Shown piece by piece: positions 13,770 to 28,858 of a stretch of 32,576 nt of DNA. A program made the position numbers and the translations under genes. The stretch lies in the NCBI GenBank assembly GCA_000996355.1, contig LCAH01000007.1:75089-107664 (forward strand). Reading direction: 5' to 3'. Below the pieces are notes generated by a model. It was not told where the DNA came from. It made no database searches and was given only the letters and a program-made list of their open reading frames with translations. The stretch is from Candidatus Uhrbacteria bacterium GW2011_GWC2_41_11. Its GTDB lineage: Bacteria; Patescibacteriota; Patescibacteriia; UBA9934; GWF2-40-263. Position 1 is the stretch's first letter. The number at the start of each line of letters is the position of its first letter.

Positions 13770-14138
13770 TTATTGATGTTTGCAGGTCTCGCAAAGACCG
13801 AAAAGTTCTAAATGGTGTTCTGAAATTCGGCGAATGGGGCAGGGAATACAGTGAACAATATCGCATTGCCGACAAATGAGATGATCGTGGTGTGTGTCTT
13901 GTGTCTGTTCGTAATGGATTTCATCATCGTGCGAATGAACGGGACGAATCATGTTTTTTTGAACCAAAATTTCAATGTTGCGATAGACCGTGGAAAGATC
14001 CATATGCGGAAGCGCATGAAAAAGTTGTGATGCGCTCCATGTTCGATGTTCAGCAAATCGTTCCAGAATTTTGTGGCGATCGACGGTTTTTCGAAGTCCA
14101 ATTTTTTTGAGATTTGTTTCAATGAAACAGTGATCCAT
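13770..14138 (-). CDS. zur: Fur-family metalloregulator, probably Zur
   Basis: Fur fold with HHDHLIC..C....C..C metal-site motifs. It is the first gene of the znu operon. Confidence 0.8.
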   Translation of the reverse strand: MDHCFIETNLKKIGLRKTVDRHKILERFAEHRTWSASQLFHALPHMDLSTVYRNIEILVQKNMIRPVHSHDDEIHYEQTQDTHHDHLICRQCDIVHCIPCPIRRISEHHLELFGLCETCKHQ

Positions 14139-14151
14139 AGGATTTCATTAT

Positions 14152-14167
14152 TGCAAATAGATTTGCA
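14152..14167. promoter_or_regulatory. Putative Zur operator overlapping the zur-znu promoter
   Basis: Perfect palindrome TGCAAAT-AG-ATTTGCA, 14-29 nt upstream of the zur ATG. On the minus strand, TTGACA (revcomp of 14171-14176) plus a 17 nt spacer brings the -10 onto the palindrome. Confidence 0.55.
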
Positions 14168-14265
14168 TCTTGTCAAATAAACCTCTTTACAGCTCTTTTT
14201 TTTCTTGCTACCGTATGCCCGTAATTGATAAAAGAACTTTCTTTTGAAAGCTCTATTGTATTTTT

Positions 14266-17866: not shown

Positions 17867-19906
17867 ATGCAAACCTGGAAACGCAAAAAGGCTGCACCGA
17901 CAAAAACAGCCAAACCGTGGAGAGCACCAGTTCTATCCGTTTTTTTTCTTTTATTAACCCTCGTCATGGCAGTCGCTGATTTTCCCTCGTTTTGGAACAA
18001 GGGGGTGACATCTGTTTCTGCAGCAACAGGTCAGAACATTTCTTGGCTCAAAGTTCCGGATATTGCGTTTCGTCTTGGATTGGATTTACAAGGAGGAGCA
18101 CATCTTGTGTATGAGGCAGACATGAGCCAAATTCCTTCAGAGGAGCGTGATGTTGCCTTAAAAGGAGTTCGTGACGTGGTAGAACGTCGTGTTAATGCAT
18201 TCGGTGTATCCGAACCTGTTGTTCAAACAACCATAACAGGGAATATCTATCGCATTATTGTTGAACTTGCCGGCATTCAGGATATTACGACCGCAATAAA
18301 TGAGATAGGAGAAACGCCTATCTTGGAATTCAAAGAAGAAAACACAGAAGTTGATCGTGCAGCAACGGTTGATGAACAGACTATTTTGGATCAAAAAAAT
18401 GCAGAGGCTAAATCAAAAGCAGATGAAATTCTTGCTCGTGCAAAAAAAGGAGAAGATTTTTCTGTGCTCATGAAGGAATTGAATGGTCAAGAATTGGGAG
18501 CAATTACGGTTGGACATCCGGCCTATGGTGTTTTAGCTCAAGCGGCTGCAAATGCAAAAGTTGCAAAGGGAAGTGTGCTTCCAACCGTTGTAGAAACAAG
18601 TAGTGGCTGGCATATTGTGCGTTTCTTGGAACAAGTTCAAACCAAACGCATGGAATTGTCCCATATTCTTATTTGTTTTGAAGGAAAAACAGGATGTCAA
18701 AATCCTGTGCCTGCGATTGATGCAAACACAACCATAACAAATTTAAAAAAAGATTTGACTCCTGAAAATTTTGCAGAAGTTGCTAAACAGAAATCAACAG
18801 ATCAAGGAACAGCATCCTCTGGAGGATATCTAGGATGGATTGAACCAGGGACAACGGTTCCTGTATTTGAACTTGCCGCGCTTGCACTTCCAGTGAATGG
18901 CATTTCAGAAGCAGTGGAAACAGAATTCGGATTTCACATCATTTATAAAAAAGCAGAAGAACCAGTGACGGCGTATCGTCTTTCGGATATTTTTGTTCCG
19001 CGGGTAAATTTGAATGAGATCGCACGTCCGGATGAATCATGGAAAAATACAACTCTTTCTGGAAAAAATTTGAAACGGGCCGGGGTTGAGTTTGATCCAA
19101 ACAGTGGTGCTCCTTATGTTTCTCTTCGTTTTGATGATGAAGGAGGAAAATTATTTGCAGACCTCACACAGCGAAATGTAGGAAAAGCCGTTGCTATTTT
19201 TTTGGATGGTCAACCGATTTCTGTTCCGGTTGTGAATGAAGCGATTTATGGTGGGGAAGCTATTATTACAGGTAAGTTTACCGTTCAAGAAGCAAAACTT
19301 CTTGCTCAACGTCTAAATGCGGGTGCTTTACCCGTTCCTATTCATCTTGTTTCTCAACAGACCGTTGGTCCTATTCTTGGAAAAATTTCTTTGGAACGAA
19401 GTATTCAGGCTGCGGTGTTTGGATTTATGCTTGTGTGTCTGTATATGATTTTGTTCTATCGGTTGCCTGGGGTTATGGCTGTCTGTGCTCTTATCCTTTA
19501 TACATTTCTTAACCTGGTGGCATATAAATTATTCGGTGTCACCATGACTTTGTCTGGAATTGCCGGATTCGTTCTTTCGCTTGGAATGGCTGTGGATGCA
19601 AACGTACTCATTTTTGAACGTCTCAAAGATGAACTTCATTCTGGTCATGATTTGCGATTTGCAACAGAGGAAGGATTTAAACGTGCATGGTCTGCTATTC
19701 GAGATGGAAATCTCACAACCTTGATTTCAGCTGCTGTTCTTTATGGATTCAGTTCCAGCTTTATCAAAGGATTCGCTCTCACCCTGACAATTGGTGTTCT
19801 CCTTAGCATGTTTACGGCGATTGTTGTGACGCGTGTTTTTATGGAAACGATTCAGAGAATTCCCTTCCTTCGCAGCCATATTTTTTATGGAGTTGAAAAG
19901 AAATGA
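17867..19906 (+). CDS. secD: Protein translocase subunit SecD with an inserted PpiC/parvulin-type PPIase domain in periplasmic domain P1
   Basis: SecD motifs LGLDLQGGAHLVYEADM and a C-terminal six-TM RND-like bundle. The insert is SHILI...GTASSGGYLGWIEPGTTVPVFELAALALPVNGISEAVETEFGFHIIYKK, a canonical parvulin signature, preceded by a second degenerate copy. Confidence 0.88.
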   Translation: MQTWKRKKAAPTKTAKPWRAPVLSVFFLLLTLVMAVADFPSFWNKGVTSVSAATGQNISWLKVPDIAFRLGLDLQGGAHLVYEADMSQIPSEERDVALKGVRDVVERRVNAFGVSEPVVQTTITGNIYRIIVELAGIQDITTAINEIGETPILEFKEENTEVDRAATVDEQTILDQKNAEAKSKADEILARAKKGEDFSVLMKELNGQELGAITVGHPAYGVLAQAAANAKVAKGSVLPTVVETSSGWHIVRFLEQVQTKRMELSHILICFEGKTGCQNPVPAIDANTTITNLKKDLTPENFAEVAKQKSTDQGTASSGGYLGWIEPGTTVPVFELAALALPVNGISEAVETEFGFHIIYKKAEEPVTAYRLSDIFVPRVNLNEIARPDESWKNTTLSGKNLKRAGVEFDPNSGAPYVSLRFDDEGGKLFADLTQRNVGKAVAIFLDGQPISVPVVNEAIYGGEAIITGKFTVQEAKLLAQRLNAGALPVPIHLVSQQTVGPILGKISLERSIQAAVFGFMLVCLYMILFYRLPGVMAVCALILYTFLNLVAYKLFGVTMTLSGIAGFVLSLGMAVDANVLIFERLKDELHSGHDLRFATEEGFKRAWSAIRDGNLTTLISAAVLYGFSSSFIKGFALTLTIGVLLSMFTAIVVTRVFMETIQRIPFLRSHIFYGVEKK

Positions 19907-19907
19907 T

Positions 19908-20804
19908 ATGACCTTGTCCATTGTTCGTCATCGAAAAATTTGGTACACGTTCGGCGGGGCGCTTGTGGTCGCAAGTTTGATAAGCACCATTGTCTTTGGA
20001 TTGAATTTTGGTATTGATTTTACAGGCGGAAGTTTATTGGAGGTGAAATTTTCGAAACCACCGGCTGTGGAAGATTTGCGCCAGCGTCTTGTTCAAATTG
20101 GTTATGATCACACCACGGTGCAACCGTCTGGAGATACGGAGTTTTTGCTCCGTTTTCGAGATCTGAATGAAACGGAACACCAGCAGATTCTCCAAACTCT
20201 CCGAGATGGATATGGTGACACACAGGAATTGCGTTTTGATTCCATTGGTCCTTCGGTTGGAAAAGATCTGCGTCAAAAAACATCTCTTGGTGTTGTCATC
20301 ACTCTTGTTCTTATTGGGGTATATGTTGCCATTGCTTTTCGTAAAGTTTCCGATCCGGTTCCTTCTTGGAAATATAGTTTTTTAACGGTTTTGGTCGCGT
20401 TTCATGATGTGATTGTTCCGATCGGAGTTTTTGCCTGTCTTGGAAAATTTTTCGGGTGGCAAATTGATACGTCTTTTGTTGCTGCGGTGCTTACTATTTT
20501 GGGGTATTCTATTAACGATACGATTGTTGTATTTGACCGAACGCGTGAAAATTTGCTTCGTTCAGAAGAGAAACCGTTTGAACAAGTTGTGGAAGAGAGT
20601 ATTCATCAGACACTTACTCGTTCGTTTAATACAGGATTAGCATCTTTGCTTACTCTTTTGGCTATTTCCATCTGGGGAGGAGATACCACAAGACCGTTTG
20701 CGGTTGCATTGATTCTTGGAATTGTTGTTGGAACGTACTCATCCATTTTTCTTGCAAGTCCATTACTTGTGACATGGGAAAAATGGGGAAAGAGACATTC
20801 ATAA
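19908..20804 (+). CDS. secF: Protein translocase subunit SecF
   Basis: GIDFTGGSLLEVKF motif and six TM segments. The ATG is 1 nt after the secD stop. Confidence 0.9.
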   Translation: MTLSIVRHRKIWYTFGGALVVASLISTIVFGLNFGIDFTGGSLLEVKFSKPPAVEDLRQRLVQIGYDHTTVQPSGDTEFLLRFRDLNETEHQQILQTLRDGYGDTQELRFDSIGPSVGKDLRQKTSLGVVITLVLIGVYVAIAFRKVSDPVPSWKYSFLTVLVAFHDVIVPIGVFACLGKFFGWQIDTSFVAAVLTILGYSINDTIVVFDRTRENLLRSEEKPFEQVVEESIHQTLTRSFNTGLASLLTLLAISIWGGDTTRPFAVALILGIVVGTYSSIFLASPLLVTWEKWGKRHS

Positions 20805-20851
20805 AAAGAGCGAAAAAAGCAGCTGTTAATTCGGCTGTTTTTTGTTTGATA

Positions 20852-20860
20852 TGTTATAAT
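20852..20860 (+). promoter_or_regulatory. Extended -10 promoter (TGtTATAAT); the downstream gene may be leaderless
   Basis: TGnTATAAT ends 9 nt before the ATG at 20870. There is no SD. Confidence 0.35.
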
Positions 20861-20869
20861 AAGTCCGAT

Positions 20870-22444
20870 ATGTTTTCTGTGTTTGCATCCACATTTGAAC
20901 CTTCGATGTTGGAAACATTTTTGGCGCAGCCTATTGACGTGGTCATGTACCAAATTCTTTTATATTTTGGATGGATTCCGATTGTTTCCGTCCTTATTTG
21001 GGGATTTGGGGAAGTGTATTTAACCTCAAAACAAGATGTATTTTCCAAAAATATAAAATATGTCCTTCTCGCGATTGATGTTCCCCGGATGACAGAACAG
21101 AGTCCAAAAGGAATGGAAAACATGTTTGCAACTCTGCATGGAGCTTTTTCAAATTTGACCTGGAGGGATAAATGGATGATTGGAAAAATTCAACCGCGGT
21201 TCAGTTTTGAAATTGTATCGATTGACGGATACATTCAGTTTTATGTGCGTACAGATATAAAATTTCGTGATGTGATTGAAGCCGGTATTTATGCCCAATA
21301 TCCGGATGCACAAATTTCAGAAGTCGAGGATTATGCATCCATTGTCCCTTCTTCCTTTCCAAATGAGGAGTGGAATATGTGGGGTTCGGAATTAGCATTA
21401 AAGAAATCGGATTATCTTCCCATTCGAACATGGGATTTGTTTGAACATAGTTTAAGTCAGGAACTCAAAGATCCGCTTGCGGTTATATTGGAACAATTGG
21501 GATGTATGAAACCGGGAGAATGTTTTTGGTTTCAAATGATCGTATGTGTGAGTGATCAAGATTGGAAAGAAGATGGGGTTAAATTCATTAAAAAAATTTA
21601 CGGTCTGAAGGAAGAAACAAAAAAATCAGGTTTAGAAAAAGGTTTAGAAAGTGCTTTGTCTATTCCAAGCGACGTTTTGGAACAAACCATTGGAGTGAGT
21701 TTGCTTGGCATGGCGGGAATGGGGGGAGCTGCTGCCGTAAAACCAAAAGATGAAGACATGTGGAAAGCGTTTAAAATTACCTTGCAAGAAAAGGCTCAAG
21801 TAGAGGGAGTCGCAAATAAAATTGCAAAAATTGGTTTTAAAACAAAAATTCGCATGTTGTATTTTGGAAGAAAGAATATCTACAACAAAGGGGCACGTAC
21901 AGCCATGGTCAAGGGTATGTTGCAACAGTATACGCATCAGGACTTAAACGGGTTTAGCATGTATGGTCCACAAACACCAAAAGATGATTATTTTTGGCAG
22001 CGCTGGTCTTATACAGATCGTCAGTCACGTTTAACACGAGCTTATAAGGGTCGCAGTTTTAGTACAGGAGGACCTCCACATATTTTAAATACACAGGAAC
22101 TTGCTACCCTTTTTCATTTTCCAAGCGTTGTGATTAAGGCACCTCTTGTGAAAAAGACAGAGTCTCGCCGTGCCGAGCCTCCGGTTGGCCTTCCGATTGC
22201 ATTCGAAGATACCATGCCATCAAAACCAGTTCCTGCATCAACAGTTCCTCTTGTTGATACAAGGTCTTCTGTCATACCTTTGAAGAAGAAATCGGTTGTT
22301 TCTGTTTCTGAACCAGAATTGCAGGTTCATATTCCGGATCCGATTCGTGTTCTTCTTGAACCTGGAGTGGAGTTAGAGGATGTTCCTATGCCAATGTTGC
22401 CAAGTTCCGAGAAAGATGAACCGCCGTCAAATTTGCCTGTGTAA
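20870..22444 (+). CDS. Membrane-anchored hypothetical protein (524 aa), partner of the downstream ATPase
   Basis: One N-terminal TM helix (VVMYQILLYFGWIPIVSVLIWGF), a large soluble domain and a Pro-rich tail. The ORF-track start 20774 overlaps secF, so M at 20870 is preferred. Confidence 0.55.
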   Translation: MFSVFASTFEPSMLETFLAQPIDVVMYQILLYFGWIPIVSVLIWGFGEVYLTSKQDVFSKNIKYVLLAIDVPRMTEQSPKGMENMFATLHGAFSNLTWRDKWMIGKIQPRFSFEIVSIDGYIQFYVRTDIKFRDVIEAGIYAQYPDAQISEVEDYASIVPSSFPNEEWNMWGSELALKKSDYLPIRTWDLFEHSLSQELKDPLAVILEQLGCMKPGECFWFQMIVCVSDQDWKEDGVKFIKKIYGLKEETKKSGLEKGLESALSIPSDVLEQTIGVSLLGMAGMGGAAAVKPKDEDMWKAFKITLQEKAQVEGVANKIAKIGFKTKIRMLYFGRKNIYNKGARTAMVKGMLQQYTHQDLNGFSMYGPQTPKDDYFWQRWSYTDRQSRLTRAYKGRSFSTGGPPHILNTQELATLFHFPSVVIKAPLVKKTESRRAEPPVGLPIAFEDTMPSKPVPASTVPLVDTRSSVIPLKKKSVVSVSEPELQVHIPDPIRVLLEPGVELEDVPMPMLPSSEKDEPPSNLPV

Positions 22445-22459
22445 CTTTAGTGTTTTGCT

Positions 22460-24169
22460 ATGTCTGTTTACCCGGATCACGATCATGAAAACGATGTTAT
22501 TTATTTTGCACGGACGAATTACCGCAATCAAATGCGGAAATTTGGCATTAAGACAGACGACCGCCGCCGTCATGTTTATGTGATCGGAAAAACAGGTATG
22601 GGCAAAAGTGTCCTTCTTGAAAACATGATTTTGGCTGATATTTATGCAGGTCATGGATGTGCTTATGTTGATCCACACGGAGACACCGCAGAAAAATTGA
22701 TTAACTACATTCCTGAATCTCGATTAAAAGATGTGGTGTATTTTAACCCAGCGGATGTCGAACATCCCATGGGTTTTAATATTCTTGAATCATCGGATCC
22801 GAATACACGTCATGTGATTGCCTCTGGGCTCATGGGAGTGTTTAAAAAGATTTGGCCAGATGTATGGAGTGCACGCATGGAACATATCTTGAATAACTGT
22901 CTTTTAACCCTTTTGGAAAATGAAGGCAGTACATTGCTTGGAATCAATCGGATTCTTGTTGATCGAGATTTTCGTGTCAAGATGGTTGCAAATGTGAAAG
23001 ATCCAGTTGTAAAAGCTTTTTGGATTACGGAATTTGAACAATGGGAACCAAAGTTTCGCACAGAGGCTATTGCACCCATTCAGAACAAAGTTGGACAGTT
23101 TCTTTCTACCAGTGTTGTGCGCAATATTGTGGCACAAACAAAATCCACGATTCGTCCTAGGCAATTCATGGATGAAAGTAAAATTTTTATTGTCAACCTT
23201 TCCAAGGGACGTATCGGGGAAGATGCGATGCGTTTACTCGGAGGAATGCTTATTACTAAAATGCAGCTTTCCGCCATGGAACGTGTGGATACTCCGGAAA
23301 TAGAACGCGCAGACTTTTATTTGTATATTGACGAGTTTCAAAATTTTGCAACGGAAAGTTTCGCATCCATCCTTTCCGAAGCTCGTAAATATCGGTTGGC
23401 TCTTATCATGGCACATCAGTATATTGAACAGCTGACGGAAGAAGTGCGTGATGCGGTGTTTGGCAACGTTGGAACGATTTTAACATTTCGTGTTGGTTCG
23501 CCGGATGCCTTATTTTTGGAAAATGAATTCATGCCTCGGTTTACGCACGAAGATTTAGTGAACTTGGCAAAATACGAAATTTATCTTCGACTCATGATTG
23601 ATGGAGTGGCATCTGAACCATTTTCCGCAAACACACTTCCTCCCATCGCGGTTCGCACAGATTCAACACAAACCGTTGTTGAATATTCCCGCAAAGAATT
23701 TTCGAAGACACGAAAAGAGGTGGAAGAAGGAGTTTTGAAATGGAGTGATATGGAAGAGGGGAAAACAGCACCTGAAGAAATTGAAAAAATTTTTGATCAG
23801 GCAGATGCGAAGCGCAAAGCCATGAAGAAATTCGGCGGAAAACCTGTCTTTGAGTATACGTGCAGTCGGTGCGGAAAAGACATGGTTCTTCCGGTTGAAC
23901 TGGATCGTTCGCGTCCTATTTATTGTGAGGATTGTATTGAAATCGTTCGTGAAGAACGTAAACAACAAGGGGAAAAGAAAGAACCGGAAAAAAAGGAAAT
24001 CATTAAAGTGACTCCCTCTTCGCCGCCTCCACTTAGATCTATGAAACCGCAATTACGGGGTTCCATTGTCGTAAAACCATCCGAAAAAGAAATCGGACTC
24101 TCTGCATTACGTAAAGATGTTTCAAAACCAAACACATCTTCGTCACCTGTAGAACAGAAAAAAGTATGA
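22460..24169 (+). CDS. HerA/FtsK/TraD-superfamily (DUF87/AAA-like) P-loop ATPase with a C-terminal ClpX-type zinc ribbon
   Basis: Walker A VIGKTGMGKS, Walker B LYIDEFQNF, and RKYRLALIMAHQYIEQL typical of TraD/VirD4/HerA-like ATPases. The C-terminus is YTCSRCGKDMVLPVELDRSRPIYCEDCIEIV. Confidence 0.78.
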   Translation: MSVYPDHDHENDVIYFARTNYRNQMRKFGIKTDDRRRHVYVIGKTGMGKSVLLENMILADIYAGHGCAYVDPHGDTAEKLINYIPESRLKDVVYFNPADVEHPMGFNILESSDPNTRHVIASGLMGVFKKIWPDVWSARMEHILNNCLLTLLENEGSTLLGINRILVDRDFRVKMVANVKDPVVKAFWITEFEQWEPKFRTEAIAPIQNKVGQFLSTSVVRNIVAQTKSTIRPRQFMDESKIFIVNLSKGRIGEDAMRLLGGMLITKMQLSAMERVDTPEIERADFYLYIDEFQNFATESFASILSEARKYRLALIMAHQYIEQLTEEVRDAVFGNVGTILTFRVGSPDALFLENEFMPRFTHEDLVNLAKYEIYLRLMIDGVASEPFSANTLPPIAVRTDSTQTVVEYSRKEFSKTRKEVEEGVLKWSDMEEGKTAPEEIEKIFDQADAKRKAMKKFGGKPVFEYTCSRCGKDMVLPVELDRSRPIYCEDCIEIVREERKQQGEKKEPEKKEIIKVTPSSPPPLRSMKPQLRGSIVVKPSEKEIGLSALRKDVSKPNTSSSPVEQKKV

Positions 24170-24957
24170 CGTTGTTTCAAGCGGTCGTGCTTGGAACCGT
24201 TCAGGGCCTCACGGAATTTCTTCCAGTTTCCAGTTCTGGTCATTTGATTTTAGTTCCAAAATTATTTGGTTGGGAAACACAAAATCTTGCGTTTGATGCC
24301 ATTATTCATCTTGCGACACTTGCCGCTATTGTCGTTGCTTTTTTTGGAGAGATTAAACACATCACAAAAGGAATATGGAAAAAACAAGATTCATGGGGTC
24401 GACTCGGACGTCTGATTATTTTTTCGTCTTTACCGGTTTTGGTGATCGGTTTCTTTTTGAGCGATGTGATTGAAACGATTTTCCGTTCTCCTGCGATTGT
24501 GGCAAGTTCGCTTGCATTCTGGGGTGTTTTCCTTTTTATTGCGGATCGATTCGTGCATCAGACAGCAGAATCAGATGTGACTCATGTTGGATGGAAACGT
24601 GCTTTTTTCATTGGAAGCGCACAGGCGATTGCTCTTGTTCCAGGAACCTCGCGTTCTGGTGTGACGATCACAACAGGTCTTTTTTTTGGACTTGATCGGA
24701 AAGCAGCTGCTCGGTTTTCTTTTCTTTTAAGTATTCCTGCAATCGCGGCTGCAGGTGCGAGTGCACTTTTGCACATGGCAGAAGGAACGGTCTCTTTGGA
24801 TTTCCTTCCGCTTACGGTTGGATTCATAAGCGCTTTCATTTCGGGATTTTTTGCCATTCGTTTTTTGCTGAGGATGCTTGCATTTGGAACGTATAAATGG
24901 TTTGCTTTTTATCGCATCATTCTTGCCGTTGTTGTGAGTATTCTTTTTTTGCGCTGA
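24166..24957 (+). CDS. uppP: Undecaprenyl-diphosphatase
   Basis: LGTVQGLTEFLPVSSSGHLIL motif and eight TM segments. The start overlaps the upstream stop (ATGA). Confidence 0.9.
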   Translation: MTLFQAVVLGTVQGLTEFLPVSSSGHLILVPKLFGWETQNLAFDAIIHLATLAAIVVAFFGEIKHITKGIWKKQDSWGRLGRLIIFSSLPVLVIGFFLSDVIETIFRSPAIVASSLAFWGVFLFIADRFVHQTAESDVTHVGWKRAFFIGSAQAIALVPGTSRSGVTITTGLFFGLDRKAAARFSFLLSIPAIAAAGASALLHMAEGTVSLDFLPLTVGFISAFISGFFAIRFLLRMLAFGTYKWFAFYRIILAVVVSILFLR

Positions 24958-28594: not shown

Positions 28595-28858
28595 TTAGAA
28601 ATCTCTTCCACAACCACTGCATTCCCGAGCAAAATTAGTGGTCATTGTTTTGCATTCCATGCAGTAATAAGACCCGAAGGAATCCGTACCGCCACGAACT
28701 GTCCTTGAACAGTGAGCACATGTTGCACCAACACCTCCACCGTTCTCGTTATATTCTCCACAATGAGAACACTGCCAAACACTGATTTTTTTTACAAAAT
28801 TAAAATCCTTATCTTGTGGAACTTGATGGACATTGTTCGGATCAAATTTCGTACTCAT
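28595..28858 (-). CDS. Cys-rich double zinc-ribbon protein (87 aa)
   Basis: Four CxxC pairs (CSHC, CAHC, CMEC, CSGC). Strong RBS AATGGAGGatactcATG. Upstream is a promoter-like TTGACA, 16-17 nt spacer, TATACT. Confidence 0.6.
   Translation of the reverse strand: MSTKFDPNNVHQVPQDKDFNFVKKISVWQCSHCGEYNENGGGVGATCAHCSRTVRGGTDSFGSYYCMECKTMTTNFARECSGCGRDF

Follow-up and report, generated by a model that had tools for sequence, protein, structure and literature searches.

Two adjacent genes on the plus strand of a 32,576-nucleotide stretch of DNA from Candidatus Uhrbacteria bacterium GW2011_GWC2_41_11 (contig LCAH01000007.1; the whole stretch is called the window below) encode a membrane protein of the DUF8128 family (open reading frame 1, ORF1) and a soluble P-loop ATPase (ORF2). 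We argue that the two genes probably specify one type IV coupling protein (T4CP) machine in two polypeptides, with DUF8128 as the platform and an ATPase that passes substrate to a translocon, likeliest a type IV secretion system (T4SS) encoded elsewhere. The pair is a gene-fission, chromosomally fixed and T4SS-detached form of coupling protein with a VirB4-like N-terminal domain. Homologues of T4CPs in Patescibacteria have already been published; in the literature searched, where DUF8128 is not mentioned by name, we found nothing on the DUF8128 partner, its fold, the relation of split to fused forms, the ranking by conservation or the conserved promoter. The parts of the pair are as follows.

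20870..22444, plus strand: ORF1, DUF8128 membrane subunit, 524 amino acids (open reading frame, homologues, AlphaFold model)
20933..21022, plus strand: N-terminal transmembrane helix of ORF1, residues 22-51 (hydropathy; helix 22-61 in the model)
21059..22111, plus strand: predicted cytoplasmic alpha/beta core of ORF1, residues 64-414, VirB4-like fold
22136..22441, plus strand: disordered Pro-rich tail of ORF1, residues 423-524 (model confidence, C-terminal conservation)
22421..22441, plus strand: C-terminal peptide PPSNLPV of ORF1, conserved among homologues
22460..24169, plus strand: ORF2, soluble T4CP-type ATPase, 569 amino acids (Pfam, structure matches)
22586..22609, plus strand: ATPase Walker A, GKTGMGKS, residues 43-50, invariant in 51 homologues
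23315..23347, plus strand: ATPase Walker B, FYLYIDEFQNF, residues 286-296, aligned with the Walker B region of TrwB
23384..23419, plus strand: ATPase RKYRLALIMAHQ motif, residues 309-320, counterpart of TrwB GRKAGLRVVAGLQ
23855..23947, plus strand: ATPase CxxC-x17-CxxC treble-clef zinc ribbon, residues 466-496 (PF23477 and TIGR04272, sub-threshold)

The original prediction, drawn from the sequence alone, had described a 524-residue protein with one transmembrane helix and a Pro-rich tail, followed after 15 nt by a 569-residue P-loop ATPase, and the open reading frames, hydropathy and proline counts agree with it. The ATG at 20870 is the same start as in the homologues, the longest possible reading frame opening at 20774, within secF, and the 15-nt spacer between the two genes contains a second in-frame stop. 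Neither frame is a chance ORF, since each has thousands of homologues; both sets come from Candidatus Uhrbacteria and other Patescibacteria (candidate phyla radiation, CPR) assemblies.

The argument that the two proteins form one unit begins with natural fusions. The profile phrog_5156 (824 positions) spans both proteins in order, with DUF8128 at positions 66-285 and the ATPase at 406-820. Its representative in Bacillus phage G, gp156 (825 aa), matches the DUF8128 profile over residues 16-322 (hhalign probability 97.8%, E 9e-13) and is 30% identical to the ATPase in its C-terminal half. A VirB4/TraG-P-loop-like protein, gp155, is encoded next to it. Apart from being a phage protein, gp156 differs from the pair in having no counterpart of the N-terminal membrane-helix segment, the alignment starting past the helix. 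This phage link emerged through profiles alone, and tblastn of DUF8128 against 50,697 phage records gave no match.

A second fusion is the 812-aa protein WP_331738717.1 of Embleya plasmid NZ_CP108778, in which the ATPase part is 35% identical to that of the window. Its N-terminus resembles DUF8128 weakly and colinearly (hhalign E 1e-3) and ends in a common junction motif, L(N/S)xxELAxLxHxP...AP..PP..(L/I)P. Nearly all of its 120 best homologues (proteins of ~800 aa from Streptomyces and relatives) carry precomputed matches to PF26449, the DUF8128 family, and to PF10412. These Streptomycetaceae fusions have the same order of parts as the pair, PF26449 being followed by PF10412, PF01935 and PF12696. 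They differ from it in being one polypeptide, in the weak similarity of the N-terminal domain, and in that the precomputed domains listed for the 120 homologues do not include PF23477; in addition, the Embleya gene sits inside a T4SS-type cluster, between genes for a VirB4-like ATPase and a Replic_Relax protein, with PrgI (VirB3-like) and an SLT/NlpC-P60 hydrolase in the same cluster. Its gene content marks this cluster as a monoderm conjugation-type T4SS module.

Because Streptomycetaceae and phage G carry both parts as one polypeptide of ~800 aa, the window pair is taken to be the gene-fission form. Judged by sequence, DUF8128 and the ATPase are two halves of a protein that is one chain elsewhere: Uhrbacteria and related lineages encode DUF8128 on its own, and Streptomycetaceae and a Bacillus phage have it joined to the ATPase. 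A haloarchaeal plasmid "TraM recognition" protein (1,034 aa) was also considered as a fusion and set aside, its ATPase being related and a DUF8128 part undetectable, and locus L077, at first sight a fusion, has two separate ORFs. Of the 70 Patescibacteria loci long enough to judge, 51 have the ATPase gene as the next one downstream of DUF8128. This adjacency, the natural fusions and the T4CP sequence and fold matches given below bear out the earlier suggestion of a split coupling-protein-like module with its anchor supplied in trans; the ATPase did not turn out to be a housekeeping family lacking a conserved partner, and the membrane protein is conserved with it.

What kind of ATPase does the second gene encode? 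Three Pfam families score above their gathering cut-offs, namely PF10412 (TrwB_AAD_bind; 36.0 bits, cut-off 20.5), PF02534 (T4SS-DNA_transf; 27.1, cut-off 20.1) and PF12696 (TraG-D_C; 25.4, cut-off 22). Sequence searches of solved structures, with the single ATPase and with a 51-homologue profile, gave strong matches to TrwB and DotL only. With a segment of the ATPase model, all 15 Foldseek matches at E <= 1e-3 were to TrwB, DotL or Cag-beta, coupling proteins whose fold has a nucleotide-binding domain and an all-alpha domain; the query was the confident part (residues roughly 46-296) of a joint model of the pair with an overall predicted local distance difference test score (pLDDT) of 55.5, built from a faulty input alignment. 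The profile of TrsK, the coupling protein of pGO1, aligns colinearly with the ATPase from Walker A past Walker B; with the profile of the pGO1 VirB4 homologue TrsE, the P-loop alone is aligned. Walker A, Walker B and a downstream R...Q motif stand in T4CP order, and the three motifs predicted at the outset (the two Walker motifs and RKYRLALIMAHQ) were all found, at residues 43-50, 286-296 and 309-320. Given the Pfam, solved-structure, fold and TrsK profile matches, the ATPase is, by sequence and model, of the T4CP type and itself lacks a membrane domain. Kyte-Doolittle analysis found no hydrophobic stretch, as expected from the predicted lack of the usual N-terminal transmembrane anchor, and the protein therefore departs in this respect from T4CPs, which carry such a domain themselves.

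The assignment can be narrowed further. Against NCBIfam equivalogs such as TraD and CD1115 the ATPase scores far under the cut-offs, which places it outside those specific subfamilies. An earlier proposal of a DUF87/TrwB layout, with an FtsK/HerA-like option, survives in its TrwB-type T4CP part; DUF87 reached 20.2 bits, under its cut-off of 23.2, HerA structures matched at E 0.16, and FtsK_SpoIIIE matched below threshold and over residues 37-59, the P-loop, alone. A role as replacement for FtsK seems unlikely, at least in Saccharibacteria, where TM7x carries an annotated ftsK. With TrwB of R388, VirD4, DotL and Cag-beta the ATPase shares the nucleotide-binding domain, the motif order and the fold, at ~14% identity over the structural alignment. 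These canonical T4CPs differ in having their own N-terminal transmembrane domain and no VirB4-like domain, and in being encoded with relaxase and mating-pair-formation genes.

The zinc ribbon, with its cysteines at residues 468-492, has two invariant and two near-invariant cysteines among the 51 homologues. The families that it matches best, PF23477 (25.3 bits, cut-off 27) and TIGR04272 (26.7 bits, cut-off 36), are of the treble-clef kind and both remain sub-threshold; PF23477 is present in many ATPase homologues. The ribbon had been predicted to be C-terminal and of the ClpX type. A ribbon is indeed present, but the ClpX zinc-finger family is absent from the ATPase Pfam matches at E <= 0.1, and the ribbon is followed by a low-complexity tail of 76 aa with 18 K/R against 11 D/E. 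In many homologues the C-terminus reads ..DDVFPW or ..GQTIRF[DE], and a second CxxC-x17-CxxC ribbon and a KKKRKRK stretch are also present; the window ATPase does not have such endings. At the other end of the protein there is a near-invariant HDHE motif (22475-22489), and an invariant DDRRRH lies just before Walker A (22556-22573).

The membrane subunit was assigned to DUF8128 through its homologues, since a Pfam scan of ORF1 itself returned no family. Homologue P0001, 100% identical over 86% of ORF1, and nearly all of the listed homologues carry precomputed PF26449; the sequence homologues number 1,959, and one is named DUF8128 domain protein in UniRef. A profile search of 1.84 billion representative proteins gave 2,826 clusters at 50% identity, and a scan of species-representative genomes placed DUF8128 in at least 552 genomes. 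Going by record titles, the lineages include Uhr-, Magasanik-, Falkow-, Kerfeld- and Buchananbacteria and the Parcubacteria group; many other records bear generic names or the clearly mistaken labels "uncultured Gammaproteobacteria" and "Binatia".

ORF1 has one hydrophobic stretch, residues 22-51, by the Kyte-Doolittle scale. Its AlphaFold model (58 homologues; pLDDT 81.8, predicted template modelling score 0.72) consists of a long membrane helix at 22-61, an alpha/beta core at 64-414 and a disordered tail, with pLDDT below 50 at residues 430-485. Because acidic residues precede the helix and K/R residues follow it, we infer from the positive-inside rule that the N-terminus is outside and that the large domain is in the cytoplasm with the ATPase. 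The core closes with a conserved ELATLxHFP...KAPL...EPPxxLP motif, and the last 88 residues are 20% Pro as against 4.6% elsewhere in the protein.

In a fold comparison the core matches VirB4/TrwK. Because DUF8128 has no P-loop and lies N-terminal to an intact ATPase domain in the fusions, the match is taken to involve the N-terminal domain of VirB4, which DUF8128 would then resemble; the likeness to VirB4/TrwK is confined to this fold, the motor here being of the T4CP type and not the VirB4 type. The partner had been regarded as a membrane anchor in trans, and it does appear to be an anchor, but not an anchor alone, since a cytoplasmic VirB4-like domain of ~350 residues is predicted as well. 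A T4CP subfamily with a VirB4-like N-domain and a VirD4-like motor is defined in this way, and it bears on the evolution of T4SS ATPases.

The extreme C-terminus of DUF8128 is nearly invariant, as PPxNLP. Where an ATPase gene is adjacent, the form PPxNLP[VILF] after a disordered linker is canonical in about 47 of 49 loci, 41 of them fitting the strict pattern and six being close variants counted by eye. In 13 of the 20 loci without an adjacent ATPase gene it is replaced by ..[ED]LPY[AG], ..EEYG or ..KFG. Perhaps the Pro-rich tail that ends in PPxNLP acts as a tether in place of the covalent link, and the motif may be a docking motif, although its correlation with adjacency is confounded by phylogeny.

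Two known systems offer precedents for a divided machine. T4CPs that lack a transmembrane domain and work with a separate membrane protein are a recognised subfamily, exemplified by TraJ/TraI of pIP501 (PMC7434980), and the arrangement of the genes described here fits that pattern of a soluble T4CP with a separately encoded membrane protein. The pIP501-type partners are small membrane proteins according to the same review (PMC7434980), whereas the partner here is a 524-aa protein with a large VirB4-like domain predicted to be cytoplasmic. In pGO1, TrsD, which is VirB4-N-terminal-like, is encoded separately and directly upstream of the VirB4-type ATPase TrsE, much as DUF8128 precedes its ATPase; TrsD, TrsE and an actinobacterial VirB4-like protein differ in having no detectable sequence similarity to DUF8128. 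TrsD was accordingly dropped as a relative of DUF8128 for want of profile similarity.

How would such a machine work? The single helix of DUF8128 would hold the VirB4-N-terminal-like domain at the cytoplasmic face of the membrane, and the ATPase would assemble on this tethered platform, probably as a hexamer like TrwB. The zinc-ribbon tail may recruit the substrate, and ATP hydrolysis would then hand or pump it to a translocon in the membrane, likeliest the Patescibacteria T4SS, which is the weakest step of the scheme. The substrate is most likely a nucleic acid or nucleoprotein, non-essential for laboratory growth, and the most likely destination is a T4SS encoded elsewhere; both suggestions are weakly supported.

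Clues to function come from work on other Patescibacteria. VirD4-type proteins occur in almost every Patescibacteria genome and almost never near a T4SS, and their role is an acknowledged open point (PMC12102498). In that 2025 survey, 5,713 VirD4-type T4CP homologues were counted in 2,918 of 3,035 genomes, 148 of them near virB4, and VirB4 was found in 2,417 genomes (PMC12102498). A T4CP is thus present in 96% of genomes and VirB4 in 80%; by our own arithmetic, such a gap is expected from about two T4CP copies per genome at ~80% completeness (1 - 0.2^2 = 0.96). Since two copies in assemblies of that completeness could explain the gap, it does not by itself show independence from the T4SS.

Transposon sequencing (Tn-seq) of Ca. 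Southlakia epibionticum ML1 covered two T4CP-like genes, both in core, Patescibacteria-enriched families (PMC10633639 supplements). SEML1_0293 encodes 921 aa with T4CP Pfam domains at 402-719, preceded by ~360-400 unassigned residues; it is non-essential, and an essential sigma-factor gene lies directly upstream (PMC10633639). Although SEML1_0293 is classed as non-essential, its Tn-seq reads drop from 5817 to 2940 and then 1372 over T0-T2. Since domain layout and a sigma-like neighbour are in common, we take SEML1_0293 to be the probable fused counterpart of the window pair. It would resemble the pair in belonging to a core Patescibacteria-enriched family, in the N-terminal residues before the T4CP domains and in the upstream sigma-factor gene; it differs in being seemingly fused and in being non-essential in co-culture Tn-seq, and its N-terminus is presumed to be DUF8128. 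SEML1_0142 (1,019 aa, P-loop domain at 381-800) is essential, with the hypothetical SEML1_0141 (420 nt) upstream (PMC10633639). SEML1_0142 is a second, more divergent T4CP-like gene, and SEML1_0141 is essential at the two later time points (PMC10633639 Table S1). A remark in the 2025 survey on a non-essential t4cp homologue fits SEML1_0293 and not SEML1_0142.

A related matter is the sigma-like neighbour itself. A protein of ~386 aa with Sigma70_r4 and HARE-HTH domains is encoded in 35 of 82 loci related to the window, directly upstream of DUF8128 where inspected. Examples are L077:3062-4222, L089:4847-5989, L037:2639-3691 and L043:6756-7796; in the window the gene is absent from that spot.

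Several results weigh against a two-part coupling protein that serves a T4SS. In 19 of the 70 loci, mostly Magasanikbacteria-like, DUF8128 is followed by genes other than that of the ATPase. At the sequence level no similarity to VirB4-type proteins was found, hhalign of DUF8128 giving E 0.046 with TrsD, 0.21 with the Embleya VirB4-like protein and 0.7 with TrsE, all over short stretches, and the fold-search output does not contain the range of VirB4 that is aligned. The joint AlphaFold model of the pair has a pLDDT of 55.5, with the DUF8128 half near 30 and unpaired homologue rows misaligned, and it served for the ATPase fold search alone. Few relaxases occur in Patescibacteria (109 in 103 genomes; PMC12102498), which weakens a classical conjugative role. 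The orthology of SEML1_0293 rests on domain layout and one common neighbour. Finally, the T4SS of S. epibionticum is essential and SEML1_0293 is not (PMC10633639), and for that reason the SEML1_0293-type ATPase is not an obligatory T4SS part in that organism.

In the main rival, the pair is a T4SS-independent motor that, alone or with ComEC or another channel, imports or exports DNA, for instance as a cytoplasmic puller in natural transformation or for nucleotide scavenging. The small number of Patescibacteria T4CP homologues near virB4 (148 of 5,713) suits this alternative, and exaptation of the Patescibacteria T4CP was raised by the authors of the survey (PMC12102498). The rarity of relaxases points the same way, as does the likely Saccharibacteria counterpart, which is non-essential like comEC in an organism whose T4SS is essential. 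The zinc ribbon, the basic excess of the tail, the KKKRKRK stretch of many homologues and the very strong purifying selection apparent on the ATPase are also consistent with such a motor. Considering, however, that competence genes are missing from the window and from the recurrent neighbours, that the closest characterisable relatives lie inside T4SS clusters, that the 96% versus 80% gap can be explained by two T4CP copies in incomplete assemblies, and that CedB and CedD are matched over the N-terminal P-loop region alone, we regard an independent motor as rather unlikely. A still bolder version, in which DUF8128 and the T4CP, fused in some lineages, form a self-sufficient T4SS-independent motor in nearly all Patescibacteria that moves DNA across or at the cytoplasmic membrane, seems to us slightly more doubtful again. 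If true, such a motor would be the power supply so far missing for taking up DNA, scavenging nucleotides or exchanging DNA between cells in organisms unable to make nucleotides, and the combination of a VirB4-like N-domain with a VirD4-like motor would place it between the two families of T4SS ATPases as an evolutionary intermediate. The two proteins provide a two-component target for work on interaction, localisation and DNA transfer in the genetically tractable Saccharibacteria.

The surroundings of the pair speak to its inheritance and to two further alternatives. In the window, the genes include those for an ABC (ATP-binding cassette) exporter, BipA, a radical-SAM (S-adenosylmethionine) protein, tRNA-Gln, Dus, a Znu-type transporter with a Fur-family regulator, a pyrophosphatase, SecD, SecF, the pair, UppP, MnmA and UvrB. 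The identified genes are all housekeeping ones; no pilus, competence, T4SS, relaxase or integrase gene is present in the window, and an Rfam search gave no RNA element within the pair or around it. The linkage to relaxase or mating-pair-formation genes by which T4CPs are recognised is absent both from the window and from the recurrent neighbours of the 82 related loci. The immediate flanks are as follows.

17867..20804, plus strand: secD and secF (Pfam), a conserved upstream neighbour, which does not by itself imply a functional link to the pair
20814..20843, plus strand: terminator-like hairpin and T-run from a consensus scan (12 pairs, 4 of them G-C, then TTTTTT), a pattern match alone
20852..20860, plus strand: extended -10 box TGtTATAAT, TGTTATAAT, a candidate promoter 9 nt before the ATG
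24166..24957, plus strand: uppP (BacA), its start overlapping the ATPase stop by 4 nt

As had been predicted, uppP and mnmA follow the pair, and mnmA begins 4 nt after uppP. The uppP gene is probably co-transcribed with the ATPase gene. The order ATPase-(hydrolase)-uppP is found in close relatives only (7 loci). Upstream linkage is wider: 44 of 65 related loci have secF on the same strand no more than 3 kb away, and secA was found in 19 loci, upstream of secD in the two that were inspected.

Conservation was compared over the 41 loci in which all four genes are present. Set against the window proteins, the ATPase has a median identity of 60%, SecD 49%, SecF 48% and DUF8128 38%, and the ATPase ranks first in 39 of the 41. 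It appears from these identities to be under strong purifying selection, stronger than that on SecDF. Plasmid-borne coupling proteins, unlike the window ATPase, show low mutual sequence similarity (review PMC7434980). The GC (guanine plus cytosine) content of the pair is that of its flanks. On this evidence the pair in Patescibacteria looks like a vertically inherited chromosomal unit, with no T4SS, relaxase or integrase genes nearby.

Could the pair instead serve protein export or envelope biogenesis together with Sec, with the ATPase feeding or extracting proteins at the membrane? The frequent proximity of secF, the secA genes and the overlap of uppP with the ATPase stop could be read in this way, and many T4CPs (VirD4, DotL) recruit protein substrates. 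Yet a terminator-like hairpin and a separate candidate promoter stand between secF and the pair, the uppP linkage is restricted to close relatives, the secDF gene order is conserved in many bacteria for historical reasons, and no signal of a protein-binding adaptor was found, so that a Sec-linked role is improbable. Derivation from an integrated conjugative or mobilisable element, as remnant or cargo, or a role as an anti-phage defence ATPase like that of MADS, is rejected on context and conservation as scarcely credible, despite relatives on plasmids and in phages and a best PADLOC match to mad8 of MADS (E 1.5e-18), for the same chromosomal neighbourhood recurs across species with 35-50% protein identity, the window lacks any integrase, relaxase, other defence gene or transposase, the GC content matches the flanks, the ATPase is more conserved than SecDF, and the family is among the core Patescibacteria families.

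The mad8 match, the best that the ATPase has in that anti-phage defence library, is stronger than the Pfam TrwB match and suggests that this soluble T4CP subfamily was co-opted for defence as well. Among the plasmid and phage sequences searched, the closest relative of the ATPase (39% identity, E 1e-78) is a stand-alone protein of 395 aa from Sulfitobacter mediterraneus plasmid NZ_CP081110 (L085:6983-8170). It lies in an alphaproteobacterial plasmid region with recombinase and transposase genes, with no DUF8128 gene annotated alongside.

The pair also has a candidate promoter of its own. The hairpin and T-run at 20814-20843 fall between the secF stop (20802-20804) and the -10 box, and AAGTCCGAT precedes the ATG at 20870 with no Shine-Dalgarno sequence. 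The extended -10 TGtTATAAT was predicted 9 nt before the ATG without a Shine-Dalgarno sequence, and so it stands; the lack of that sequence is not distinctive, many window genes being without one. In 27 of the 82 related loci a TGnTAnnnT box precedes the predicted start of DUF8128 by 4-18 nt, with a mode at 9-10 nt. The same search found it before 1 of 58 ATPase genes, 2 of 50 secD genes, 1 of 52 secF genes and 2% of random positions, and this comparison lends support to the leaderless promoter suggested earlier. Because of the usual spacing between a -10 box and the start of transcription, the DUF8128 mRNA is predicted to be leaderless or near-leaderless, on a transcript separate from that of secF; it would begin at 20867-20870.

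A similar arrangement is found elsewhere in the window. On the minus strand at ~14139-14180, upstream of the Fur-family gene (13770-14138), TTGACA is followed after 17 nt by a TAAT-containing box that ends ~8 nt before the ATG. This second leaderless-looking start implies that leaderless transcripts may be common in this genome. Two other features of the window deserve mention. In SecD (17867-19906), the periplasmic P1 region is interrupted by two rotamase domains of the PPIC (parvulin) type, an architecture also seen in relatives, and an ORF of 87 aa on the minus strand (28595-28858), directly downstream of uvrB on the opposite strand, contains four CxxC pairs.

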